DNA of 64,000 bases from Chloroflexus aggregans DSM 9485 (GCF_000021945.1 NC_011831.1:1313353-1377352); one strand, 5' to 3'. Positions 29,160 through 44,549 are shown, counted from the stretch's first letter. The notes: generated by a model from the letters alone, not told the origin. Made by a program: numbers and translations.

Positions 29160-29960
29160 TTGTATTACTGTTGTATTACGCACGAAAGGTTGTTGAACGT
29201 GGAACTCTTCGATCTCGCCTTAATCTTTACCGCTGCATTGCTGGCCGGTGCATTGAACGCGATTGCCGGCGGCGGTAGCTTCTTTTCTTTTCCAGCCCTT
29301 TTAGTCGCCGGCGTGTCACCAATCGTCGCCAATGCGACAAATGCGTTGGCACTCTGGCCGGGCACGCTGGCGAGTGTCGGTGCCTACCGGCGCGAGCTGA
29401 GTGGTCAACGGAACGACATTTGGCTCTTCAGCGGGTTGAGCCTGATCGGTGGACTGCTCGGTGCGCTGTTGTTACTCGCTACCGATGAACAACGTTTTAC
29501 CGCCTTGATCCCGTACCTGTTACTCTTCGCCACCCTGATCTTTACCTTTAGCCCACAGATCACCACCGTAGCCCAACGGCTGGTCGGTCATGGCAGTCGT
29601 CAGCAACGCCTGTTGGTTACGGTTGTCTATTTTGCCATTGCCATCTACGGTGGTTTTTTTGGTGCCGGACTGGGGATTCTCACCCTCGCGGCTTTGGCCT
29701 TGCTCGGTCACGACAACATTCATCGGATGAATGCGCTGAAAACTTTGCAGGCGGCGCTCGTTAACGGGATTGCGGTGGCGACCTTCGTTGCCACCGGCTT
29801 GATCGCGTGGCTACCGGCCCTGATCATGACGATCGGCGCGATCGCCGGCGGCTATGGCGGTGCGGCGATTGCCCGCCGCATAGACGCCCGCCGGGTTCGC
29901 ACCGTGGTTGTGTGGATCAGCATCGGTTTGACGGTCTGGTTTTTTGTGCGTGCATCCTGA
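29160..29960 (+). CDS. TauE/SafE-family (DUF81) anion exporter membrane protein
   Basis: Multiple TM helices with duplicated GxGGG-like motifs (AGGGSFFSFP and GAGLGILT). The likely start is GTG at about 29198. Confidence 0.7.
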   Translation: MYYCCITHERLLNVELFDLALIFTAALLAGALNAIAGGGSFFSFPALLVAGVSPIVANATNALALWPGTLASVGAYRRELSGQRNDIWLFSGLSLIGGLLGALLLLATDEQRFTALIPYLLLFATLIFTFSPQITTVAQRLVGHGSRQQRLLVTVVYFAIAIYGGFFGAGLGILTLAALALLGHDNIHRMNALKTLQAALVNGIAVATFVATGLIAWLPALIMTIGAIAGGYGGAAIARRIDARRVRTVVVWISIGLTVWFFVRAS

Positions 29961-30075
29961 TCGCCATCGGTACGGTCGGATACTGAGTGGGTAGCGGTGC
30001 GCTCCCGCTGCCGACGGCGCCGCACCGCATCCCCGGCGGATCGCCCGGACGTGATCGGAGGTCACGCTACCGGTA
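29912..30075. repeat. Left copy of a 164-bp direct repeat flanking a 13-kb island (includes the last roughly 16 codons of the TauE gene)
   Basis: About 96% identical to 43107..43270. The mismatches are clustered in one 13-bp patch. Confidence 0.7.
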
Positions 30076-30105
30076 CGGTCATACGCACCGCGACAGCGGG
30101 CCAGC

Positions 30106-30516
30106 GTGCCCTTGCTCGCGCTCCGTGCGGCTCCGGGGCGCCACCGCGCCGGTGACGCAATGGATGTGCTCGACGACGGTGACACGAACCTCACGGTACG
30201 CACCACGCGCTTCCCCACCCATCACACCCACGGCACGGGCTGCACCTACGCGACGGCGACCACCGTCCCGCAGCCTGCTGGAGCAGGCCATACGCCGGGG
30301 CCACTCGTCTTTGCCGGGGGACCATCGCTGGCGTGCGGCCCATCGGTGCGGGGTAGAGGCCGGTGGCGCACTGCCGGCGCGCGATCAGGAGTGCGATCGA
30401 TGGGCGCGCGCCTGATCATCGGTGGATCGGGCGCGGTGCAATGGCAAGGCGAGAACGCCAAACGTCTCCATGCTCCCCACGCATCAAACACGACGCCCCC
30501 GTACCGGTCAACGTAA
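30106..30516 (+). pseudogene. thiD: Remnant of thiD (HMP/HMP-P kinase) C-terminus
   Basis: RFPTHHTHGTGCTYATATT resembles the ThiD NTHGTGCTLSAAIAA motif. The surrounding reading frame is disrupted and it sits in GC-rich non-coding-looking DNA. Confidence 0.3.
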
Positions 30517-30779
30517 TGATCGCCGCTGTGAAGGGGCAGGAATACGCCGGTAGGTCCCAATGCCCTCACGTGCAGAGGGTGGATGGGATGAACGCGCTTG
30601 CACCGCCGCACCTCTTCCGATAGCGGCTTGTGCGGTGCGGCGCGCGGAGTGGTTGCAGCGCAGCGCGCCGCGCTCCTGATCGAGCAGTCCGCGTGAATGA
30701 CCGGAAGAAAACATCTGGAACGCATTGACATCAGATAGAGAGTGACCTATAATTAGTTTGTCTACCGCGCAATGTACAA

Positions 30780-31030
30780 CGATAATACAGCAAAATTGCA
30801 TGCGAGTTTCAAGTGCGAAGGTTATCCGTCTATCAGGGCATGCGCGGGCATAGGGCATAGGTGGATGAGGGGCGGCCGAACGCGGTACGGTGCGGGATGA
30901 GACGGACGGTTTGTCTATCTAATGTGGTGCTGGCGAATATCGGCGGATGAAAGGCGGCTGAACGCGGTGCAGGGTGGGAATAGATAGACGGTTCTCCGTC
31001 TAACGTAGTACTGGCTGGGATAGGCAGAGG
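30780..31030. repeat. Degenerate tandem repeats of about 85 bp, with a recurring GGTTnTCCGTCTA(T/A)C motif in three copies
   Basis: The units ggatgaGGggcggcCgaacgcggt... and ggatgaAAggcggcTgaacgcggt... are about 75% identical. This is too degenerate and irregular to be a CRISPR array. Confidence 0.45.
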
Positions 31031-31318
31031 TGGTCAATCTACTTCATATTAGCCCGCTTCGTAGCCATTCGAGAAATAGAAGGGTGCGAATCGGTTATGA
31101 AATCATCTGACGCAAGGCGTAACATAACAATATACAATCAGCGTCTTCTGAAAATCAAAAAGTATAGGTCAGTATGCATGCTTTCAATCTGAGTTAGCGA
31201 GTTAACCAGCGCATGCATCCGACAAACTTCGCCTCGCTGCGCCCGGCTTGCCGTAGGTGATGCGTGGGTCCTTGGGCGTTATCACATTACCGTAATCCAT
31301 ACACAATCAGGCCAGGTA

Positions 31319-32683
31319 ATGAAAACGACAAAGAAATTTTTCGGTATATTCCCCAAAATATTATTCTTTCCAGTTCTGTTTGTTATTATGGCGTTGCCTC
31401 AATTGCTTTCCAAATCACCTTCGCCATTTTTCAGATCTATTAAGCAGCTTTTGGAATCACAATCTATTTTCACGATATTACTCATCGTTTTTGGAATACT
31501 ATTACTGATAGTACTGATAGCTGTAGTTGCTGTTCTGACAGATGATGAGTGGAAAGAAAACATGAAAAGAAAAGTTGACACTACCGAAGCAGTTAAACGC
31601 GAGCGAGGGGGAAACGGAATCTATACAGACCCGATACCGTTCATCTGGATATTTTCTGTCTTAACTTATGTCTATGTAGAGACAGGTAAAGAATGTGCTA
31701 TTGTGGACGGAGAGCGCATTATTGAAACGAAACAATGGATAACCAAATCTTTCTTCCACGATGCAGTTATCCGGTATGTTTTACTTGAGCCACCACCTCT
31801 AATTATGACTATCGAAAATGTTCGCACGCAAGATGATTTGTACCTCACTGCCGATATCTCTGTTACATACAGAGTTCGAGATCCACTTGCTATTATCAAG
31901 AAAGCTGACCCTCTGAAAATTCTACAAGAGCATGTTAAATCACAATGTACTAATTTAATAGGGCGACTAGACTATTACACTATCGCGGATAAAAAAGCCA
32001 AATATGAAAACGAGATATGTGCAGCTATCCAGCGAGAAAGCATATTACCACTTTTTGAGATTACCAGTGTTCATCTTGAGATGAAATTAGCGGTTGACCC
32101 GCGAAACGTTGAAAAGATTGAAGAACTGAAGAGACAGCAAAAAGAGAAGGATCTTCTGGTTGAAGATAGACAGAAAGAGCGTGATCATGCCCGTGAGATA
32201 GATAAAGCGAAAATCGGGGCAGGTTTAACCATTATTAAAGAGACGGCTGAAATTGCAAAAGGAAGATCGGAGTCCACCAAAGAATACATAGATTCTCTAG
32301 GTCCTAGGGCTATATTATCTATGATAGGAACTCCTTATCATAACTTAGAATCGGCTCCAAATCTACCTATGTTGACCGAAGCAACAGAAAGGTCGAGATA
32401 TGAACGTGAAAAGCCTGAACTCGATAATCTGCAAGAAAACGGTGTAATCAAAAACTATGAATCTCGATGGAGTAAAGATGGAAATTTCTGTGGCGTGGTG
32501 ATTGAGGTGGATGATGGACAAATTCATATTTTGTCCCCAAGCTATCCAGATATTGCCCCGACTATTCAATTCATTTCTAGATCAGGTCAAACTTATGAAT
32601 GGCCTATTGAAAAATGGAATGCTAATATGACTATCGTGCATGTTATCACAATTGCACTCAGTAAAATAAAACTTCTTCAATGA
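31319..32683 (+). CDS. SPFH/band-7 (stomatin/prohibitin/flotillin-like) membrane protein with a long C-terminal extension
   Basis: Two N-terminal TM helices. The SPFH core is TQDDLYLTADISVTYRVRDPLAIIKKADPLKILQEHVKSQCTNLIGRLDYY. AT-rich codon usage. Confidence 0.55.
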   Translation: MKTTKKFFGIFPKILFFPVLFVIMALPQLLSKSPSPFFRSIKQLLESQSIFTILLIVFGILLLIVLIAVVAVLTDDEWKENMKRKVDTTEAVKRERGGNGIYTDPIPFIWIFSVLTYVYVETGKECAIVDGERIIETKQWITKSFFHDAVIRYVLLEPPPLIMTIENVRTQDDLYLTADISVTYRVRDPLAIIKKADPLKILQEHVKSQCTNLIGRLDYYTIADKKAKYENEICAAIQRESILPLFEITSVHLEMKLAVDPRNVEKIEELKRQQKEKDLLVEDRQKERDHAREIDKAKIGAGLTIIKETAEIAKGRSESTKEYIDSLGPRAILSMIGTPYHNLESAPNLPMLTEATERSRYEREKPELDNLQENGVIKNYESRWSKDGNFCGVVIEVDDGQIHILSPSYPDIAPTIQFISRSGQTYEWPIEKWNANMTIVHVITIALSKIKLLQ

Positions 32684-32692
32684 GAGTTATTT

Positions 32693-33232
32693 ATGAATAA
32701 TCCTATTGATATAATGATCTTGATCGTCGTAGGATTGGCAACTTTTATAGGCTTTTTCAAATCACCAAGCTCTATTGTGATCGAAATGATATTACTTTAT
32801 GTAGCCGTGGTTCTAACCTTTCAGTATTTGGTGGGAATTAGTGAAATCATCTCAGGTATATTATCAGTAAACGAACGGGTAATATATATTCTAGGTACAG
32901 CGCTCATATTGGGGATCTATTATGGATTGATAAAGACTTACAACCAAATATATAAGCCAAAGCCCAAGAATGAATCAGGGAATCGCGTGTGGGTTTCTCG
33001 GATAATTAGCGGGAGCCTAGCACTGATTCACATTAGCTTTTTGCTAAGTGCGTTGTTTACAATGATTTATCCACTGGCCTTCGAATGTAGAGAAAGTCTG
33101 ACAGACATACCTTATGAACTATGCATTGCAGCAGATATACTTGAACACAGTGAAATCATGAACAGTAATGCGACAATCGAAATGCTTGACGTATATAATG
33201 CGATAATCCAATTTTGGATTCCACCGAGGTAA
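32693..33232 (+). CDS. Small integral membrane protein (about 4 TM)
   Basis: Hydrophobic segments are present. It follows the SPFH gene after a 9-bp gap. Confidence 0.45.
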   Translation: MNNPIDIMILIVVGLATFIGFFKSPSSIVIEMILLYVAVVLTFQYLVGISEIISGILSVNERVIYILGTALILGIYYGLIKTYNQIYKPKPKNESGNRVWVSRIISGSLALIHISFLLSALFTMIYPLAFECRESLTDIPYELCIAADILEHSEIMNSNATIEMLDVYNAIIQFWIPPR

Positions 33233-33245
33233 TTGGAGGGATAAC

Positions 33246-36038
33246 ATGCACTTAAGAGAACCTTACATTTTTACAATAAATGATTCTGTTGGCGCAAAAG
33301 GAGTTCATGCAATTTTTGCAGCGCGAGTTCCGTTTATCCCTAGCTTTATGACCAGTGATTTTACACGCTCTTTGTCGGGTGGTGGAAAAAGCCGGCTAGA
33401 ATTGATAACTGAACGGCAAGTCAGGTTCATTAACGATTTGCTAAATACCCGCAATATTGGTGTTGCCAATGAAAAAAACTCAGCCAATATAACTATTGAC
33501 TTGCGATATATTGCGCGACCAAATGCAGATAAGAAAAGATTTTCGAGTAACATAGATGTTGTTTTCTTAGGTAAAGCTTTTCACGAAGATGAGGCAACAG
33601 CAAAACGCCTTTGTCATCAATTGTGGCGCAAATTTATCGCGCATTTCCCTTTTGAGGACCCTTTTAACTATCCCCTGGAAGCAGTGAGCTTAGGAGGAGA
33701 CAGTCGGGAAGATATTGACAGGTGTATGGAAACCATGAGGGGATTGGTATATCCTATTCCATTTAATCAACTAGATTGCTCAAATAATCCCTTGCTAGAA
33801 ATACGGAAATATGAAGATTTTGATCCAGAACTTTCGCCAGGAGCAATTGAGGGATATTTTCCGCATCGTTTTATGCCCACATTCGATACTTCAGCCCTCG
33901 GCAGATTTTTAGAAACATTGGTACAACAACAGCAATTATGTGTTGCAAGCATCTGTCTTCGTCCTACACAGTTAACAAGGGATGAAGAAATCTTTCTAAT
34001 GGATTTATTAGCTAAAAATGAAACATATATAACTAAACTAACAGGGCGCAAAAAGCTTCACTTTGAAGAAAGATTCCAAGATGTCCGGGACACTTTTTGG
34101 CCCATTATTAACCGGCGTTATCACTTATTTCAAATCAAAATTCAGGTTTTGGGAGAAAAATACCCCCCAACCGATGTTTTAGAAGCACTTGGTTCAGAAT
34201 TGCTCGGAAATACTTACAAGCAAGAACCTCGTTTATGGGCTAAAGAACAACCTGCAACTATTAATGAGCTAAAAGTAGCCCTGTATAATTTTGAATGTCT
34301 GGAATATAAATCCTGGGGAAAACGAATATTATCTGACTCACGTGCTATACGCCTGCGTCAGTTAGTCACACCGACCGAAGCCGCAGGTGCTTTCCGCTTG
34401 CCCATACCACCTGAAAGTGGTTATTTGCCAGGTATTATTGTACGCGATGAGCCTTTTGTCATACCTCAAAGCACTGCGTCCAGTTCAGTAGAAAGTATTT
34501 CCTTAGGGGAGATTTTTCATCATGGTCAAGCTACAGGGGAAAACTTTTTTGTCCCTGTGCGTGATTTAGCTAAACACGTATTGATTGCTGGCGCAACTGG
34601 TAGTGGTAAAACAAACACCTGTTTGCATTTATTATCACAGCTCTATGCTGACTACAAAGTACCTTTTTTAGTTATGTATCCCATTGATAAATCAGACTAT
34701 CGGCTTTTGATCGGCGATCCTGCTATCAAAGATAGCCTTTTAATTTATACAGTAGGCGATGAAACTACATCACCATTTCGTTTTAATCCATTCTATGTTG
34801 CTGATAAAATTCTGCTCAAAACACATATCAGTTTATTGATGCGCTGTTTTTCAGCCGCGTTTAGTATGTGGGATCCTTTACCAGCAGTATATCGCGCCGC
34901 TTTACGACAAGTTTATCGAGCAAATGGATGGGATTTAGACCATGATACAGGAGAAACTGGGCGTATGCGCCAAGCAAAAACTCCTTGTATGTCACAATTT
35001 TACGAAGTTCTACTATCTGTGACAGAACAAATGACCGCAGGTTATGATGAAGAGGCCAAAGGGCGTGTGCGTCAATCGGCAGAGATTCGCTTACATGATT
35101 TGCTGCTAAATGCCGGAACAGTGGTTAATACCGAACAACCTGCGCCTATTGCTGATATTTTAAGATATCCTACCGTAATGGAATTGGGGCGAGTTGGCTC
35201 AACACAGGACACAGCGTTGATTATGGGTTTTTTGATAGTCTTGCTTATCGAGGAAATACAAAGCAACTATAGGAAGATATCAACCGAAGAACGTCAAAAG
35301 CCATTACGTCATGTGCTGCTTATTGAAGAAGCGCATAGATTGATGTCAGCTGTTCAAAACGCCAGTGAAGATTTAGCCAATCCGCAAGCAAAAGGGGGAG
35401 AAGATTTTGCTAATATTCTCGCAGAGGTGCGCGGATTTGGGCAGGGTATATTTATAGCTGAACAAATCCCAACGCAACTTGTAAATGGAGCTCTAGGTAA
35501 TACAAATTTGAAGATTATGCACAGATTGGAAGATCAAGATAGCTTCAAATTGTTTTGTGAAATTCTCAATCTGAATGAGCGGCAAAAAGAATATGTCCGT
35601 TCGTTAGAGCCTGGACAAGTTATAGTACGGGGACGGGATAGCCGACCGGTTTTTGTAAAGGTGGGTAATTATCTTGATCGTTTTCAAACGTCCGATGATT
35701 ATCCTCTTGTAGATGATAGTGACGAAGCGGTCAAAAAACTTATGAGTAGGGCAAACCTATCTGTGCGTATTCCTACCGCAATGCAATGGTATCCAGAAAA
35801 CGCTATATCCACGTCAACAAGTGCAGACATTTTACTAACTGATGACTCTCAACCCTTCTTGGAAACAGTGCAACAGGCCGTGGAAAGTGAAAATTGGGAA
35901 CGAGTTAGACGAGTAATTTCAGGGTGGTTGAATCCAGCAAATTCACAAAAAATTAAGGTCAAGCTGTGTGAGGAAATTGTCAGAAAATTGAATTACACAG
36001 GCACACAGGCCGAAATAATTCTTTCCCTTTTCAAATAA
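33246..36038 (+). CDS. HerA/FtsK-like (DUF87-type) P-loop ATPase, 930 aa, with an N-terminal extension of about 450 aa
   Basis: Walker A VLIAGATGSGKTN and DEAH-like Walker B HVLLIEEAHRLM. A downstream GFGQGIFIAEQ...R segment is typical of HerA/VirB4-type ATPases. Confidence 0.6.
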   Translation: MHLREPYIFTINDSVGAKGVHAIFAARVPFIPSFMTSDFTRSLSGGGKSRLELITERQVRFINDLLNTRNIGVANEKNSANITIDLRYIARPNADKKRFSSNIDVVFLGKAFHEDEATAKRLCHQLWRKFIAHFPFEDPFNYPLEAVSLGGDSREDIDRCMETMRGLVYPIPFNQLDCSNNPLLEIRKYEDFDPELSPGAIEGYFPHRFMPTFDTSALGRFLETLVQQQQLCVASICLRPTQLTRDEEIFLMDLLAKNETYITKLTGRKKLHFEERFQDVRDTFWPIINRRYHLFQIKIQVLGEKYPPTDVLEALGSELLGNTYKQEPRLWAKEQPATINELKVALYNFECLEYKSWGKRILSDSRAIRLRQLVTPTEAAGAFRLPIPPESGYLPGIIVRDEPFVIPQSTASSSVESISLGEIFHHGQATGENFFVPVRDLAKHVLIAGATGSGKTNTCLHLLSQLYADYKVPFLVMYPIDKSDYRLLIGDPAIKDSLLIYTVGDETTSPFRFNPFYVADKILLKTHISLLMRCFSAAFSMWDPLPAVYRAALRQVYRANGWDLDHDTGETGRMRQAKTPCMSQFYEVLLSVTEQMTAGYDEEAKGRVRQSAEIRLHDLLLNAGTVVNTEQPAPIADILRYPTVMELGRVGSTQDTALIMGFLIVLLIEEIQSNYRKISTEERQKPLRHVLLIEEAHRLMSAVQNASEDLANPQAKGGEDFANILAEVRGFGQGIFIAEQIPTQLVNGALGNTNLKIMHRLEDQDSFKLFCEILNLNERQKEYVRSLEPGQVIVRGRDSRPVFVKVGNYLDRFQTSDDYPLVDDSDEAVKKLMSRANLSVRIPTAMQWYPENAISTSTSADILLTDDSQPFLETVQQAVESENWERVRRVISGWLNPANSQKIKVKLCEEIVRKLNYTGTQAEIILSLFK

Positions 36039-36638
36039 GTGAGGTTTCAAATGATATCTGGACGAGTCAACAGCACACGAAACAATGCATCAAGATCGGT
36101 TCGGTCAACGAACATCAAGTCACGCTTTGGTCCATTAAGAGTAAGCACACCATCAAGTTCAACAAGGATCTCTACTCCAAGAATACCGCGAGTTTCCAGC
36201 GCGAGCAAGAAAAAAGCAACGAAATTTGCTAAAACAATGAAAGCAGGACGTACATTTCAGAAGCGGGTTAATAAAGAATTGATGAAAAGGCACGATAAAG
36301 TTTACTCTGAGGTGTATGTACAGGGTAAAAAATCACACAATGCTAGAATTGATCACCTTGTGGATAGTAAGAAACTACAGCCGTATTCCACCAAGAACTC
36401 AAGGTGGCACAAAGTACAAGCGACGACATGGAAAAAATATGTACGTGAGGCCGCCAAATACCCAGACCGGACTATTCTAACCAACAAGCCAGGGTATACC
36501 CATTTGAAAGGACGCAAGGTAGGTAAAAATCCTGTGTTAGTAATGCCGAAAAGGTACTTAAAAAAAGATACCCAAGCGCGTCTGCAAGAAATAAAAACTT
36601 ACGCTAGTAAAAGACGGGTTCGCATAGAATTACAATAG
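36039..36638 (+). CDS. Highly basic (Lys/Arg/Ser-rich) hypothetical protein; possible nucleic-acid-binding or toxin-like component
   Basis: Extreme K/R content. It is immediately downstream of the ATPase, and the probable true start is ATG at about 36051. Confidence 0.35.
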   Translation: MRFQMISGRVNSTRNNASRSVRSTNIKSRFGPLRVSTPSSSTRISTPRIPRVSSASKKKATKFAKTMKAGRTFQKRVNKELMKRHDKVYSEVYVQGKKSHNARIDHLVDSKKLQPYSTKNSRWHKVQATTWKKYVREAAKYPDRTILTNKPGYTHLKGRKVGKNPVLVMPKRYLKKDTQARLQEIKTYASKRRVRIELQ

Positions 36639-36647
36639 GAGGAAAAA

Positions 36648-37058
36648 ATGGACATCAACATTAAGGAAACTCTTACATCTTTGAAAATAGACTTCATTGA
36701 GTTAGAAAATGATGTTTATGGTCTTAGTATAGCTTCCACCGATGAAAGTAGTCGTAGTTTTCCAGTAGTACTATTTCAATGGACAGCTGGAGATGAGCAA
36801 GAATACATACGTTTGATAATCGCTCCTTTTATAGAGCGCCCAAATGAAGGTTTTGCTTTTGACCTGTTTGAACGGGTTTTAGCTATCAATGAACAATTAC
36901 CTAGGGCTAAATTCTTATTAGACAGTGATGGCGATTTGGGATTAGCATTGGATATAGATATTGAAGAATGGCGTTCGGAGAATTTAGCACGTGCGCTGGA
37001 CGTGTTGGGGTCATTTGCTGATTATTGTTACGAAGAATTAGAGTCTTTTGGCAAGTAA
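36648..37058 (+). CDS. Acidic small protein, YbjN/T3SS-chaperone-like; possible immunity or partner of the basic protein
   Basis: D/E-rich with a predicted alpha/beta pattern. It lies 9 bp after the basic-protein gene. Confidence 0.3.
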   Translation: MDINIKETLTSLKIDFIELENDVYGLSIASTDESSRSFPVVLFQWTAGDEQEYIRLIIAPFIERPNEGFAFDLFERVLAINEQLPRAKFLLDSDGDLGLALDIDIEEWRSENLARALDVLGSFADYCYEELESFGK

Positions 37059-37757
37059 TCTACGGTATACAAAGAACCATCCAACAAGCACATGCACCTG
37101 ACGCGTCTGGTGCTGCCGTCATTGACGGTGAAACGGGCATTGCGACTAGATTTTTGGCGAAAGTGTTTACCACGCACCCGCTACGCGGGTGATGCTCAGG
37201 TCATTGGGTTGCGGAAATAAGTTCTCTGCGCGATAACAAAAAGACACATTGCTCACTAAAACTAGAATGGAGGTAAAGAATGGGTGGCCTTGCGCAATTT
37301 CTCTCTGGAGTGAATTTTCGTGTCACTATACAGAAGTACTGTAAAAAGGATGGAGAATCAATGACATTACAGGCATCGTTGCCTTGCCGCAGGTCACCTG
37401 TCTTGTCGTGGTTCGTCTGGCGAGGTGCGCAGCGACTGAAGTCGACCGGGCTGGCAGGGCATGAGGCTTCTGTCGGCGGTGGGGTTGTGCCCGCGATGTC
37501 CTTGCCTGGGGTGGTGTGAGAAGGTCATGGGTGTCTGGGATGTTGCTGCCGTTGTGCTATAATTCTCAGGCGTGATCGTTATGTCACTTTGCTAATAGGA
37601 ACAGGCAGGGCTTGCGGTCGGTGGGGGCTTGCTTCCGTTCTGGGGGTTGCGGCTAACACGCGCATGCAGGCGACTACTCCGCTTTGCTCGGTCGCAGCGG
37701 CTGAAGCGCAGGCCGTTAGCCAGCGCAACGTGGTTCAAGTCAGAAAGGTGAACAAAA

Positions 37758-37982
37758 ATGCTCCAAGTAAATTTAGAAGAAGCGAAAGGTCGTTTGCCCG
37801 AATTGGTTAATGCCGTGCTAAAGGGTGAAACGGTGTTGATTGTTACAGACCTTCAGGCAATCGTCCAACTGGTGCCCGTGATCTCTTCCATGCGCCGCCA
37901 GTTTGGGAGTGCGAAAGGATTGATTGTCATGGCGGATACTTTCGATGCACCACTCCCAGACTTTAACCCGTATATGCCATGA
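37758..37982 (+). CDS. vapB: Type II antitoxin, Phd/YefM-like (VapB-type partner)
   Basis: MLQVNLEEAKGRLPELVNAVLKGETVLI is a classic antitoxin N-terminus. It overlaps the downstream PIN gene start (ATGA). Confidence 0.6.
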   Translation: MLQVNLEEAKGRLPELVNAVLKGETVLIVTDLQAIVQLVPVISSMRRQFGSAKGLIVMADTFDAPLPDFNPYMP

Positions 37983-38364
37983 AACTACCCCTTGATACAC
38001 ACGCTTTCCTGTGGTTCATCGGCGGTGATGAGCGCCTCAGTCCCAGTGCACGGGCGTTGATTGAAGACATGAGCAATGATGCTTATCTTAGCATTGCCAG
38101 TCTATGGGAGATGGCGATCAAGATCAGTCTTGACCGACTGCAATTGGCACAGCCTTTTGAGATTTTCATCCCACACCAATTAAGCCTGAATAGGATCGGG
38201 TTACCTGTATCACGATGAGCCATACCGCTAAGGTAGCTACCCTGCCCTTTCACCATCGTGACCCTTTTGACCGCTTGCTGGTGGCACAGGCCCAGGTTGA
38301 GCAAATGCCCCTTGTGAGCAGCGATGCAGTATTTGACGCATATGGCCTTATGCGTTTGTGGTGA
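37979..38364 (+). pseudogene. vapC: VapC PIN-domain toxin, frameshifted at about 38215
   Basis: The N-terminal 79 aa (LDTHAFLWFIGGDERLS...SLWEMAIKIS) end at TGA. The PIN C-terminus (LPFHHRDPFDRLLVAQAQVEQMPLVSSDAVFDAYG) continues in the -1 frame. Confidence 0.6.
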
Positions 38365-38425: not shown

Positions 38426-38956
38426 TTAAGAAAGGACAATAACTGGTTGCAGAGTTGCGGAAGGCTGGCTCTGAAGTGATCCGTGTGAAAGGCAGCTATC
38501 ACTTTTTGCGACATCTCGACGGACAGCGCACTGTTGGTCCCGTTCATCGTGGAGAGACCATTGGCTCAGGGTTGATGTCGAAGATTCTGCGTGACTGCGA
38601 GATGAGCCGTGATGAGTTGGAAAAACTCCTGTAATCGCGTCATCGGTTGCAGTGGAAAGATCGAGCGGCGGTTGCCCGGGACGGCGCAGCACGGCGCGCG
38701 GCGTCTTTCCCTGACGCCGCATCGTCGCGCACCAGGCGTTCAGTTTCTCGGCAATCTTCTCGGCGAGCGCGATGGCAGCGGTCACGCCGGTCGCTACCCT
38801 GCCGATCTCGTCGATCACAACCACGACCGTCTGCCAGTCGATGTCTCTGGTGGGTTCGCGCTGAACTTCAGCGCCCGCAGCGCGGAGAAGCGCCGGTAAG
38901 GACTCACGCTCATCGTTTGGAAAGTCGAGCGTGAAACTGAGATCATGCTTCGTCAT
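38426..38956 (-). CDS. Hypothetical protein (possible mobile-element fragment), antisense or convergent to the hicA remnant
   Basis: The ORF starts at MTKHDLSFTLDF.... Its C-terminal half is low-complexity and reads through the hicA remnant, so it may be spurious or decayed. Confidence 0.15.
   Translation of the reverse strand: MTKHDLSFTLDFPNDERESLPALLRAAGAEVQREPTRDIDWQTVVVVIDEIGRVATGVTAAIALAEKIAEKLNAWCATMRRQGKTPRAVLRRPGQPPLDLSTATDDAITGVFPTHHGSSRSHAESSTSTLSQWSLHDERDQQCAVRRDVAKSDSCLSHGSLQSQPSATLQPVIVLS
38443..38634 (+). pseudogene. hicA: HicA-family toxin remnant (no start codon; preceded by in-frame TAA)
   Basis: LVAELRKAGSEVIRVKGSYHFLRHLDGQRTVGPVHRGETIGSGLMSKILRD matches the HicA fold motif (GSHH..). 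The N-terminus is truncated. Confidence 0.4.
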
Positions 38957-40369: not shown

Positions 40370-41253
40370 ATGAGTCATAGCGGACAGCCATTGGCAGAGG
40401 TCTTCGGTCACCTGGTCACCGATCAAACAGATACGGCGAAACGGTATCGTTCTCTTCGTCTCTGTCCCTTCAACAACAAGGTGCCGAATTGCACAAAGGA
40501 CAAAGCAAAGAATCCCCTTGGCGTGTGCAGCATCTATCATGAGAACGCGCCTGTCATTACGCGCCTGTCATTACGTGCCCCATCCGATTTCGTCAGGACT
40601 GGATCATTGCTGACCATGCCGCAGCTTTCTTTTTTGAGGAAGGAACACGGTGGACCTCTCTGACTGAAGTGCGTTTACATGATGCTTATGGCAAGTCTGC
40701 TGGAAACATTGATGTGGTTCTCGTTGCCTATGATGATAAAGGGCGGGTTATTGATTTTGGTGCTCTTGAGATCCAGGCTGTTTATATCTCCGGCAACGTC
40801 CGTGAACCATTCGAGTATTACATGGGCGATCCGCAAAACAGGGCTTCCATGGATTGGTCCGCTGAGCCGAATTACCCTCGTCCTGATTATCTCTCATCTT
40901 CTCGTAAAAGGCTCGTTCCACAACTCGTTTATAAGGGCGGAATCTTGCATAGCTGGAAAAAGAAGATTGCTGTGGCACTGAACAAGAGCTTCTTTGCTAC
41001 GCTACCCACTCTCGAACAAGTCTCAAAGAATGAGGCAGATATTGCCTGGCTCATCTACGATTTGGAGCTGCGTGAAGGGCGATACTATCTGACGAAGGTG
41101 GACGAGGTTTTTACTGAATTTGAACCCGCGCTGCTTTCTATTACAACACCATTGCCTGGAAGAGTGGAGGATTTCATCAAACTGCTTCAGGAAAAGCTCG
41201 ACGAGCAATTGGAAACTCCTCCGACAAACCAAACCATCGAGAGGCCGTTTTGA
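40370..41253 (+). pseudogene. Type II restriction endonuclease with an N-terminal Cys4 metal-binding motif (NotI-like architecture), disrupted by a 14-bp tandem duplication
   Basis: A Cys4 cluster (CPFNNKVPNC...GVCS...ITCP once repaired). gcgcctgtcattac is duplicated at about 40547-40574, shifting the frame; removing one copy yields a continuous 291-aa ORF (...ITCPIRFRQDWIIADHAAAFFFEEGTRWTSLTEVRLHDAYGK...). A PD-(D/E)xK-like IDVVLV...ALEIQAVY segment lies downstream. Confidence 0.4.
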
Positions 41254-42254
41254 CTATGTCGACACAGAGACAGCTCCCGTTATTTTCTGAGGAAATGGCT
41301 TTGCCACGCCCGGTGAATGTCGCGTCAGTTCCGCAGCGAAGTCCTTTCCGCTACCCTGGCGGAAAGACATGGTTTGTGCCCACATTCCGACGCTGGGTAG
41401 CTAGTCTGAAACGCAAGCCCCTCATACTCGTTGAACCGTTCGCCGGTGGGGGGATCATCAGCCTTACCGCCCTCTTTGAAAACTTGGTCGAAAAGGCGGT
41501 CATGGTCGAATTGGATGATGAAGTGGCAGCCGTGTGGGAAACCATCGTAAACGGTGATGCGGTGTGGCTTGCCAATCAAATCTTGACCTTCACAATGACG
41601 AGAGAAGCCGTTGAAGCGGAGCTTCAGAAAACTCCCACGACCATACGGGAAAAAGCGTTTCAGACCATTCTGAAAAACCGAACGCTTCATGGGGGAATAC
41701 TCGCTGAAGGCTCTCGCTTCATCAGATACGGAGAAAACGGAAAAGGAATCGGTTCTCGATGGTATCCGAAGACACTTGCTCAGCGACTCATCAATCTGAA
41801 TACTGTTGCACATCGGATTGATTTCCGGTGCGATGATGGCTTGAATGTGATGATGGAGTTTGCCCACCGTGAGGATGTTATCTATTTTATTGATCCTCCC
41901 TATACCGTCGGTGGCAAAAAGGCGGGCAAACGGCTGTATAAACATCATCAGCTTGATCACGAACATCTCTTTACAATTTGTGAGTCGCTCGTGGGCAATT
42001 TTCTTATGACATATGATGAAGCAGATGAAGTGAAGGAAATGGCTCGAAAGCACAGGTTTCAGATGCGTTTGATTCCGATGAAAAATACGCATCACGCCAC
42101 AATGAGAGAATTAGTCATTGGAAGAGATGTATCGTGGTTGGACGAGTTGCCTGCCATTCACGAAGCAAGAGTCGAATATCGTGGTACGACATCCGAGCAA
42201 GAAACGTCCTCCCCACGCACTCCGGCCGACCGTCCCTCATGTGCGCAATCGTAG
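41250..42254 (+). CDS. DNA adenine methyltransferase, Dam-like (D12 class)
   Basis: N-terminal FRYPGGKTW (motif I/X of the Dam family) and YFIDPPYT (motif IV, DPPY). Its start overlaps the endonuclease stop (ATGA). Confidence 0.65.
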   Translation: MTMSTQRQLPLFSEEMALPRPVNVASVPQRSPFRYPGGKTWFVPTFRRWVASLKRKPLILVEPFAGGGIISLTALFENLVEKAVMVELDDEVAAVWETIVNGDAVWLANQILTFTMTREAVEAELQKTPTTIREKAFQTILKNRTLHGGILAEGSRFIRYGENGKGIGSRWYPKTLAQRLINLNTVAHRIDFRCDDGLNVMMEFAHREDVIYFIDPPYTVGGKKAGKRLYKHHQLDHEHLFTICESLVGNFLMTYDEADEVKEMARKHRFQMRLIPMKNTHHATMRELVIGRDVSWLDELPAIHEARVEYRGTTSEQETSSPRTPADRPSCAQS

Positions 42255-43106: not shown

Positions 43107-43270
43107 GTGGATCAGCATCGGTTTGACGGTCTGGTTTTTTGTGCGTGCATCCTGATCGCCATCGGTACGGTCGGATACTGAGTGGGTAGCGGTGCGCTCC
43201 CGCTGCCGACGGCGCCGTAACACATACCCGGCGGATCGCCCGGACGTGATCGGAGGTCACGCTACCGGTA
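43107..43270. repeat. Right copy of the 164-bp direct repeat; overlaps the 3' end (last 4 codons plus stop) of the histidine-kinase gene
   Basis: See 29912..30075. Confidence 0.7.
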
Positions 43271-44549
43271 AGGTAAACCAGAACGTCGAACCACGCCCTT
43301 CTTGGCTACTGGCCCAAATCCGGCCACCGTGCCCTTCGACCAGATGTTTGGCAATCGCCAAGCCCAAGCCGGTGCCGCCGGTATGGCGGGTACGCGCCCG
43401 GTCAACTTTGTAGAAGCGCTCGAAGATACGCCGAATATCGCGACTAGAAATGCCGATCCCGGTATCGCGCACACTGATCAAGATCCACGTACCTGCCGGA
43501 TGCGGCGGTCGATCTGTCCGCGAGGGAGGATCATCGACGGCAATATGCAATACTTGGGCGGCAACGGTGATTGTGCCACCTTCGGGGGTAAACTTAACCG
43601 CGTTGTGTAACAAATTGAGCAACACCTGCCCAATCCGATCACCGTCCATTAGCGCGGGCGGTAGATCGGACACCGGTTCGGTACAGATAGTGTGGTGTTT
43701 GCGTTCGGCTTGGGGACGGATACGCTCGATCGCCCGCTCTATCACCGGCCAGACGGCGAGCGGCTCCAGCTTCAACGAGACCCGACCCGACTCGAGACGT
43801 GATAACTCGTGCAGTTCATCAACGAGTTGGGTGACGGCATCGATCTCTTGTGCCATCTGTTCGAGCATCCGAGCAGCGATATCGGGTGGTGGGGCCGATT
43901 GCAACGTCTCAACCAACAATTTGAGCGAAGCTAACGGCGTGCGCAATTCGTGCGACACATTAGCAACCAGATCACGCCGCGCGCGCTCTAACATACTGAT
44001 TTGGGTTAAATCACGGATTGTGATCAGCGCACCGACAATATCCCGCGAAGCGGTGTATAACGGGACAAACTGCAAGTGGAGTGTGCGCCCGGTTGCCAGT
44101 GGACGGATCGTTAATTCACGTTGCTCACCATCGGTCATCGCATCGTGCGCCAATCGGTCAGCTTGATGATCGCGCACCAACGTGATCAACCCACTCCCAC
44201 GCATATCAGGCTGACCGGCCAACAAATGAATTGCTGTGTCGTTATGAAAGACGATTTGACATGCGCGATTGACGACGATGACACCGGTATCGATGGTTTG
44301 CACAAGGGCGACAAAGAGGGGCTGACAGTTGGGGAGGCCAAGCTGGAGCGATGGATCGTCCGGTGGAAGTGATGATGAGAGGGTAAGCGTCATTACCTCA
44401 TCCTGTTCCGCAACAGATGGTGCAGCAGTAGACTCTTGGTCACGGGCAACACGTAAGCGTTCAAGCTGACGCCCCCGGCGCACGGTGAAGATCAGGCTCA
44501 CCGTTAACACAACCGTCGCCACCGTCAGCGTCAATTCCAACAGGGTCAT
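43257..44549 (-). CDS. Two-component sensor histidine kinase (PhoR/BaeS-like)
   Basis: N-terminal TM, PAS-like region, H-box SHELRTPLASL, N-box LLNLLHNAVKFT, and G-boxes DTGIGIS and GGTGLGLAI. Confidence 0.85.
   Translation of the reverse strand: MTLLELTLTVATVVLTVSLIFTVRRGRQLERLRVARDQESTAAPSVAEQDEVMTLTLSSSLPPDDPSLQLGLPNCQPLFVALVQTIDTGVIVVNRACQIVFHNDTAIHLLAGQPDMRGSGLITLVRDHQADRLAHDAMTDGEQRELTIRPLATGRTLHLQFVPLYTASRDIVGALITIRDLTQISMLERARRDLVANVSHELRTPLASLKLLVETLQSAPPPDIAARMLEQMAQEIDAVTQLVDELHELSRLESGRVSLKLEPLAVWPVIERAIERIRPQAERKHHTICTEPVSDLPPALMDGDRIGQVLLNLLHNAVKFTPEGGTITVAAQVLHIAVDDPPSRTDRPPHPAGTWILISVRDTGIGISSRDIRRIFERFYKVDRARTRHTGGTGLGLAIAKHLVEGHGGRIWASSQEGRGSTFWFTLPVA

Follow-up and report, generated by a model that had tools for sequence, protein, structure and literature searches.

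VirB4 is regarded as the ATPase that marks conjugation and type IV secretion systems (T4SS). SPFH proteins are often paired with membrane proteases or ATPases, and flotillin scaffolds the assembly of the type VII secretion system (T7SS) in Staphylococcus aureus. YeeF and YezG are a T7SS toxin-immunity pair of the LXG type. In type III secretion systems (T3SS), chaperones of the CesT class attach to effectors in their N-terminal part, and it is the export ATPase that sets these chaperones free. Chloroflexus aggregans DSM 9485 carries a five-gene cassette, A to E, whose products resemble parts of these machines. The cassette is located at positions 31319-37058 of the 64,000-nucleotide stretch analysed here (GCF_000021945.1, NC_011831.1:1313353-1377352; "the window"), and the analysis was wholly computational. 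We assign a probability of roughly 45% to the reading that the five genes are one operon, the smallest representative of a so far undescribed family of systems that deploy toxins with a VirB4-like ATPase, export of the toxin being favoured.

The cassette consists of five co-directional open reading frames (ORFs) on the plus strand with intergenic gaps of 9, 13, 0 and 9 nt: A (31319-32683, 454 aa), B (32693-33232, 179 aa), C (33246-36038, 930 aa), D (36039-36638, 199 aa, GTG start) and E (36648-37058, 136 aa). The GC content was 0.38-0.42 across six successive 1-kb segments (31-37 kb) as opposed to 0.50-0.64 in the flanks, or roughly 0.40 against 0.55. Contig L167 from a hot-spring metagenome-assembled genome (MAG) showed 94.8% DNA identity to window positions 31113-37283, outside of which the flanks diverge, and a cassette of identical make-up is present in L167/L168. 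This AT-rich block (31113-37283, plus strand, GC about 0.40), delimited by the composition profile and the match to L167, is a horizontally acquired operon. An earlier reading of the window from its sequence alone (the sequence-only reading) had described the tight spacing and the low GC, an SPFH protein with two transmembrane (TM) segments, a polytopic protein, two ATPase motifs, a very basic protein and an acidic YbjN-like one; ORF calls, a 1-kb GC profile and the searches given below bore out all of these.

The central component appears to be C, which comprises an N-terminal domain (NTD, aa 1 to about 400), a P-loop domain (about 430-830) and a variable C-terminal tail. Walker A (GATGSGKT, 449-456) and Walker B (LLIEEAHRL, 690-697) are intact, and the columns G449/G452/G454/K455/T458 and E694/E695/A696/H697 were invariant across 35 homologues; because of this invariance the motor is predicted to be active. 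Pfam and hydropathy indicated a single P-loop domain; neither an FHA domain nor a genuine TM segment was detected. Sequence likeness to known families was limited to the P-loop part (Pfam DUF87 with 1.1e-5, HerA_C and FtsK). PADLOC returned mad8 with 3e-15 and HerA models down to 7.8e-12, and the nearest solved sequences in the PDB were HerA/DUF87 chains. The NCBIfam HerA equivalog models gave 20-36 bits against cut-offs of 800 (HerA_antiphage 20.4 bits), TrbC_conju gave 14 bits against 800 and traC_PFL_4706 9.9 against 520. Weak NCBIfam matches to TrbC, TraC and TraD models had E-values of 0.012-0.15, and no CagE_TrbE_VirB, AAA_10 or TraC family was matched in Pfam at E≤1.

Residues 1-425 of C were modelled from an alignment of 12 homologues. 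The model was confident with a pLDDT of 77.6 and a pTM of 0.81, and in Foldseek all 12 hits at E≤1e-3 were TrwK chains, the best with an E-value of 2e-6 and a probability of 1.00. A separate fold comparison likewise pointed to a VirB4/TrwK-like fold, with all other folds at or below 6.2. Thus, as modelled and by two fold methods, C is of VirB4 architecture, i.e. a VirB4-type NTD followed by an FtsK/HerA-class motor. Its previous classification as a HerA/FtsK-type ATPase holds for the P-loop core, which is related, but C is not a motor of the HerA defence type in view of the equivalog scores and the VirB4/TrwK-like NTD.

More than 200 full-length homologues of C with 40-60% identity were found. 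The NTD family is rare (63 representative clusters at E≤1e-3 in 1.84 billion), and plasmid and phage collections yielded relatives of the ATPase domain alone, with 27-35% identity and uninformative annotation. About 170 loci, here given L numbers, were gathered, all through the ATPase, and the C-type NTD was present in 78 of them. Co-occurrence was counted by iterative profile searches and BLAST clustering within these loci; genes were called by a simple greedy ORF picker, which over-extended some starts.

D (36039-36638, plus strand) is composed of the leader MRFQMISGRV, a basic, disordered linker rich in S/T/P/K/R (about residues 10-65) and a C-terminal domain of 130 aa. It has a net charge of +42 and a pI of 11.5, and its GTG start abuts the stop of C. 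In a comparison with the effector of locus L164 the alignment was confined to aa 1-79 (32%, E 1e-6), while the C-terminal domains were unrelated. The motif MRF[EQ]MxSG was found only at the start of D and of its counterparts in L164 and L165. This speaks for translation from the GTG at 36039 and not from the annotated ATG, which is four codons further downstream.

In nearly every locus the gene that abuts or almost abuts the ATPase stop codes for a protein with a strongly charged low-complexity N-terminus. The domains in this slot included Endonuclea_NS_2 (1.2e-34; the next gene codes for a YezG-like immunity protein, 5.5e-8), Tox-GHH (3.7e-19), a UPF0102/YraN-type restriction endonuclease (REase; 3e-5) and, in 17-20 loci, a metallopeptidase-like family c3 (HExxH) with a small conserved partner, c5. 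The leader RGWxPSxxTIxAI occurred in 7 of 8580 ORFs, and all seven are located directly downstream of the ATPase and differ in their C-termini. Conserved N-terminal regions with exchanged C-terminal toxin domains are the hallmark of polymorphic toxins. By these comparisons of sequence the ATPase gene is followed by one for a polymorphic effector, whose charged leader is specific to the lineage and whose toxin domain is swappable. Because the effectors lack a hydrophobic signal peptide or Sec signal, any export would require a dedicated machine. On metagenome contigs L123, L124, L135 and L138 the leader (E/D)xPRGWxPSxETIxAIxG was seen on effectors just after the ATPase, with REase-like, ParB-like and metallopeptidase-like C-terminal domains, and three of these four loci have two effectors.

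The toxin domain of D has the conserved positions D105-H106 ... (S/E)-x-K119. Pfam gave a weak match to NERD (0.068) and PADLOC a marginal one to PycTIR (E 0.01). An AF2 model of the domain, built from two sequences, was too poor for a fold search (pLDDT 61.6, pTM 0.47). A PD-(D/E)xK nuclease is a plausible candidate for this domain. The basic effectors of L001, L080 and L084 are heterogeneous, and hhalign found no relation between them and the D family (probability 0.7%).

E (36648-37058, plus strand) has a net charge of -18 and a pI of 4.06. Pfam assigned it to YbjN with 4.4e-6 (27.4 bits against a gathering score of 22), and TY-Chap1 (2.1e-4) and CesT (0.01) were matched below threshold; with its conservation pattern E thus resembles YbjN and T3SS chaperones (TY-chaperones). 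YbjN, CesT and the YopN-chaperones form a single superfamily of peptide-binding chaperones (PMC9503650). Over its full length E was 64% identical to its counterpart in L164, although the toxin domain of D is replaced there, and E-type proteins also follow the Tox-GHH effector in L133. YbjN-like proteins were found in 8 loci, always downstream of the ATPase. In 8 of 8 the N-terminus of the effector was basic with +4 to +20 over the first 80 residues; in loci without a YbjN gene the effector N-termini were acidic with -5 to -30. As far as gene content and leader charge go, the YbjN-like protein tracks the type of leader, not the type of toxin.

Because E is conserved while the toxin domain of D is swapped, E looks like a leader-binding chaperone or holder and not like a cognate antitoxin. 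We therefore propose that E may hold or chaperone the basic leader of the effector. In the window the gene after the toxin, i.e. E, does not co-vary with the toxin domain; immunity-type partners (YezG-like, c5) are present in relatives. The proposal that D and E are a toxin and its neutraliser can be kept in so far as D is a toxin-type effector with an acidic partner, but must be given up for E as the cognate neutraliser.

A (31319-32683, plus strand) is a membrane SPFH/Band-7 protein with two N-terminal TM-like segments (aa 5-33 and 43-79), an SPFH domain, a charged coiled-coil-like stretch and a C-terminal RWD/UBC-like domain (about 375-454). The Pfam score for Band_7 was 2.4e-7, 31.4 bits with a gathering score of 23.6. 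The positive-inside rule suggests that the SPFH and RWD domains are cytoplasmic. With hhalign, homology was seen between the C-terminus of A and the last domain of the c2-type SPFH proteins in relatives (probability 92%, E 6.5e-7), and the latter domain matches Pfam RWD with 5.6e-4 (in L080 it bears the mark "RWD (weak)"). The C-terminal domain of A is thus predicted to be RWD/UBC-like, i.e. E2-like and non-catalytic. In L086 (695-1723) an A-type SPFH protein has a C-terminal zinc ribbon (CSSCGG...CPSCGQ) in place of the RWD-like domain, a link to the zinc-ribbon membrane proteins that dominate in other branches.

Hydropathy gave about four TM-like segments for B (32693-33232, plus strand), the gene of which immediately precedes that of the ATPase. 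Pfam matched it below threshold only, to Colicin_V/CvpA with 1.7e-3, and no NfeD match was seen at E≤1. Relatives of B were limited to L083, L088 and L107, each time in an operon with the ATPase and an A-type SPFH protein. We propose that B may be a membrane partner or anchor, placed as VirB3 is beside VirB4.

A same-strand SPFH gene was present in 33 of the 78 loci with the C-type NTD and in 22 of the 35 that have at least 5 kb upstream and at least 3 kb downstream, while none of the 89 loci whose ATPase shares the P-loop domain alone had one. These are counts of SPFH given the ATPase, and the SPFH proteins concerned end in the RWD-like domain. SPFH proteins and C-type ATPases thus appear to co-occur far above chance across Chloroflexota and metagenomes, a recurrence of the kind that the sequence-only reading had proposed to look for. 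The order Band_7, ATPase, small basic protein, YbjN is kept in the nearest relatives L164, L165, L001, L080 and L084. The cassette is a mosaic: C, the leader of D, and E are nearest to the L164/L165 lineage, and A and B are of the type in L083, L088 and L107.

Three elaborations were seen in relatives. The first has Hsp70 with several J-domain, double-zinc-ribbon and TM proteins and a protein with Zn-ribbon, TM and TPR parts. The second has E1 (ThiF), E2 (E2-CBASS) and JAB together with several further RWD-tailed membrane proteins; it includes the closest relatives L001 (Chloroploca), L080 (Oscillochloris) and L165, and also L084, L087 and L089. The third, an A-type SPFH protein with a B-type 4-TM protein, is found in the window, L083, L088 and L107. 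No E1, E2 or JAB gene is present in the window cassette, where the RWD-like domain on A alone remains. In L165 (1-7991) and L001 (2428-7978) at least five proteins share the same RWD-like end, among them several TM proteins, two JAB proteins and the SPFH protein, and a conserved protein of about 64 aa without a C-terminal Gly-Gly is encoded just upstream of E2. The RWD domain may be an assembly adaptor of the whole system.

Further genes were noted in single branches. After YbjN and on the same strand, L164 (5513-11106) and L165 (11779-17390) code for a TPR-like protein of about 470 aa and a protein-kinase-domain protein of about 1386 aa, both of which are absent from the window. The Obscuribacterales/Melainabacteria loci L008-L079 (e.g. 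L016:2927-10707) contain a sister branch of the ATPase with about 1066 aa. In each case the gene before it codes for a protein of about 1300 aa that combines a Zn-ribbon and TM segments with a long region that is acidic and disordered; the same protein contains a second P-loop ATPase, which looks like VirD4/TraG-type coupling proteins ("VLVLGQGGKGKT"). In this branch an acidic protein of about 200 aa follows the ATPase and the SPFH gene is absent.

The partners of C diverge fast. The ATPases of the window and Chloroploca are 59% identical, while A, D and E are unrecognisable by BLAST. Searches with A, B, D and E by tblastn and phmmer against the first 79 genome loci gave zero matches, and a word-index search of 5.8 billion proteins found one other homologue each of A and of the C-terminal domain of D (84-86%, in the L167/L168 MAG). 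It is this divergence that made iterative profiles and clustering necessary. Parts of T4SS or a relaxase (VirB3, VirD4, VirB6, VirB8, pilin) were found neither in the five cassette proteins by Pfam nor among the clustered neighbours in the 78 loci. No T4SS family was among the best 25 of 132 Pfam families, each present in at least 2 of 150 non-redundant neighbours from these loci, and plasmid-borne relatives were not located within T4SS operons. The passages of literature covered by our searches contained no description of a VirB4-like or HerA ATPase with SPFH, RWD, YbjN or such effectors, in agreement with the view of the sequence-only reading that the combination is undescribed.

The surroundings of the cassette are those of an island. 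A direct repeat of 168 bp with 97% identity is present at 29912-30079 and 43107-43274, and its left copy covers the final 49 bp of the TauE gene (29160-29960). The intervening segment of about 13.2 kb contains the cassette together with toxin-antitoxin (TA) and restriction-modification (RM) genes. The repeats look like the attL and attR sites of an island inserted at the 3' end of TauE; no integrase was seen for the bracketed segment. The neighbours at 37758-38218, 38455-38634 and 40370-42254 are partly decayed defence genes. They comprise an antitoxin-like ORF with a PIN domain shortened to 79 aa, a HicA for which no HicB was recognised, and a restriction endonuclease of the NotI type that is broken into two ORFs (40370-40663 and 40669-41253); a D12 adenine methylase is also present and is intact. 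A defence-rich island had been claimed here, and TA and RM genes do adjoin the cassette, but several of them are decayed.

Just upstream of the operon are two adjoining imperfect direct repeats of about 80 bp (30858-30940 and 30938-31022), which are GC-rich and about 72% identical; the second unit contains the hairpin AGACGG-TTCT-CCGTCT. The repeat-bearing stretch is 89% conserved in L167 and could be a regulatory element of the operon. Rfam gave zero RNA families upstream of the operon or in these repeats, there is no tRNA next to the operon, and a promoter and terminator scan yielded AT-rich noise alone. The L167/L168 sequence (GCA_026004375.1, contig BPJA01000053.1) carries the MAG label "Patescibacteria group bacterium", but probably is a mis-binned Chloroflexus contig. 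Its right flank is unlike the window, and L167:7513-7659 matches window positions 30444-30590, which are upstream of the cassette in the window.

How does the locus compare with the described systems? With VirB4 of T4SS, C shares the VirB4-type NTD followed by an FtsK/HerA-class ATPase domain (R388 TrwK, PDB 7o42 and 8rtd). However, by sequence its P-loop domain is nearer to HerA/DUF87, its identity to VirB4 is 9-11%, and the cassette lacks VirB2, B3, B6, B8, B10, D4 and a relaxase; the partners are instead SPFH-RWD, polymorphic toxins and a YbjN-like chaperone. T7SS (EssC/YukB and EccC; YeeF-YezG LXG) differ in that the cassette has no WXG100/LXG protein, EssA, EssB or EsaA, and C has no FHA domain, TM anchor or triple ATPase. 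E matches the T3SS CesT/SycE class and the YbjN superfamily (PMC9503650) in being small, acidic and encoded beside its presumed client, with matches to YbjN, TY-Chap1 and CesT. Like those chaperones it appears to follow the N-terminal region of the client and not the catalytic domain, binding being predicted, yet the cassette contains no injectisome or flagellar-type (F1-like) ATPase.

HerA defence systems and mad8 of MADS have a P-loop core related to that of C and a similar setting in horizontally acquired islands. Yet the NTD of C differs, similarity at the level of the HerA equivalogs with their HAS-barrel N-terminus is missing, the defining effector partners are absent, and of the MADS proteins only mad8 was matched, and that by C only, with no other mad genes or methyltransferase core in the operon (PADLOC). 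As with HflK/C-FtsH and flotillin, the genes pair an SPFH protein anchored in the membrane with an ATPase that forms rings, but C is not an AAA+ protease, A carries an RWD-like adaptor and there is no NfeD partner. In a type II TA system the antitoxin would be specific to the toxin family; E did not pass this test, being conserved in L164 beside an unrelated toxin domain.

The NTP-dependent conflict systems of multicellular prokaryotes (PMC7159879) and the ubiquitin-like E1/E2/JAB modules (Iyer et al. 2006, PMC1779556) are alike in their hosts, i.e. filamentous Chloroflexota, Actinomycetota and Desulfobacterota. They also have in common chaperone-type NTPases (Hsp70 in our relatives), a linkage to E1/E2/JAB, polymorphic effectors that share adaptors, and REase/HNH effectors. 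Their core NTPase is described there as MoxR, GTPase or STAND, while the core NTPase here is VirB4-like, and no passage of Kaur et al. 2020 (PMC7159879) pairs SPFH with a HerA/FtsK-type ATPase. Membership in HerA defence, as a T4SS/ICE remnant, in T7SS, MADS, plain TA or SPFH-NfeD was rejected, as a defining feature of each is missing. We consider the system a probable variant of ATPase-driven toxin deployment and of polymorphic toxin systems, with an appreciable chance of its being a secretion system of a new kind.

A mechanism can be sketched as follows. A, with its two TM segments, SPFH oligomerisation and RWD adaptor, would form a membrane platform with B, to which a hexamer of C would dock at the cytoplasmic face, like VirB4 on VirB3/VirB8 and FtsH on the HflK/C cage. 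E would hold the highly basic leader and linker of D and keep the nuclease-type toxin inert. On recognition of the leader, C would displace E and spend ATP on unfolding and threading D. D would then be exported across the membrane, with neighbouring cells as the target. By analogy the closest functional match would be a secretion ATPase whose substrate is chaperoned and addressed by its leader. We favor export because all recognisable parts match the logic of secretion most closely: the ATPase is of T4SS type, there is EccE-like similarity, the chaperone is of the T3SS class and the toxin/immunity cassettes are of T7SS type. Further reasons are that relatives hold toxin-immunity arrays and that the effectors have no Sec signals. 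Our confidence in export, as against release inside the cell, is modest, and the direction of deployment is the least certain step. It is a tentative, rather doubtful extension that the whole family is a new protein-export and toxin-delivery machine, with a VirB4-like motor on an SPFH-RWD scaffold, charged leaders and hand-over by a YbjN/CesT-type chaperone, aided in its larger forms by Hsp70/J-proteins or E1/E2/JAB.

Several points weigh against export from a VirB4-like motor. The structural match of the NTD to VirB4 has 9-11% identity and a global TM-score of only about 0.4, and C failed all VirB4 models of Pfam and NCBIfam. Among the cassette proteins no channel-forming or envelope-spanning component was identified, B being weakly CvpA-like. 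The assignment of D as a nuclease rests on motif and position, with a poor AF2 model and NERD at 0.068. E1/E2/JAB in relatives and the TA/RM neighbours are more typical of intracellular anti-phage immunity. Finally, the window shows no immunity gene that would be specific to the toxin domain of D, and this weighs against export because an export system that protects its kin would be expected to carry one.

The last two points lead to the main rival, abortive infection, in which the SPFH protein and ATPase would sense infection or a perturbation of the membrane, the ATPase would strip E inside the cell and the freed nuclease D would destroy DNA. An acquired AT-rich block beside TA/RM genes within a 13-kb segment bracketed by 168-bp repeats suits such a role, as do the patchy distribution and rarity of the family with its fast-evolving partners. 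In the closest relatives E1/E2/JAB is present as in CBASS and Bil immunity (E2-CBASS, ThiF, Prok-JAB). The PADLOC matches to HerA and mad8 models point in the same direction but are partial; none of A, B or E was matched by PADLOC, D was so marginally, and the adjoining TA/RM genes are partly decayed. Furthermore, the immunity-type partners (YezG-like; c5) and the toxin-immunity arrays of relatives are typical of delivered toxins, and a VirB4-type ATPase and a T3SS-class chaperone are parts of secretion. A defence or abortive-infection role was the interpretation offered by the sequence-only reading, but toxin domains, immunity genes and shared leaders fit the delivery of polymorphic toxins at least as well. 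We regard release of D inside the cell as possible, if on the unlikely side.

That the cassette is made of two unrelated modules is improbable. D and E would then be a type II TA pair, to which their complementary charges would conform, and A-B-C would serve membrane housekeeping or quality control like HflK/C-FtsH, or would be a DNA translocase. SPFH proteins commonly partner membrane proteases or ATPases, and Hsp70 with J-domain membrane proteins in relatives suggests the handling of proteins. Yet there is a gap of 0 nt between the C stop and the D start, a charged-leader effector almost always follows the ATPase across the 78 loci with leaders specific to that position, E does not co-vary with the toxin domain, and an acquired, rare cassette does not show the pattern of housekeeping genes.

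A remnant or part of a conjugative element or T4SS with C as its VirB4/TraC, the finding that the sequence-only reading had named as speaking against a defence cassette, is very improbable. The fold of C is VirB4-like and the weak NCBIfam matches are to TrbC, TraC and TraD, so this much of the idea stands; no relaxase, VirD4, VirB6, VirB8 or pilin gene was present in the cassette or among the best 25 of the 132 neighbour families, the VirB4 sequence models failed and the plasmid relatives are outside of T4SS operons. A known HerA defence system (Sir2-HerA, DUF4297-HerA or NurA-HerA) with unusual partners is hardly credible, since the DUF87/HerA_C, PADLOC HerA and nearest-chain matches cover only part of the P-loop domain, HerA_antiphage reached 20.4 bits of 800, and Pfam and PADLOC found no Sir2, DUF4297 or NurA partner.

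A VirB4 fold in a compact operon without any other part of a T4SS would show that this motor was recruited to another task, one in which it is linked to an SPFH scaffold, to polymorphic toxins and to a chaperone of the secretion type. If toxin export is true, filamentous monoderm bacteria would have a secretion route that is both new and very small, and the cassette would be a five-gene model for the organisation of a membrane ATPase by an SPFH scaffold. If intracellular immunity is true, anti-phage defence would gain a new motor and a new logic of effector release, and the Hsp70/J-proteins and E1/E2/JAB modules of relatives would be linked to the control of toxins. Either way, one clonable operon makes the function of bacterial SPFH-RWD proteins and the addressing of toxins to an ATPase by leader peptides testable.

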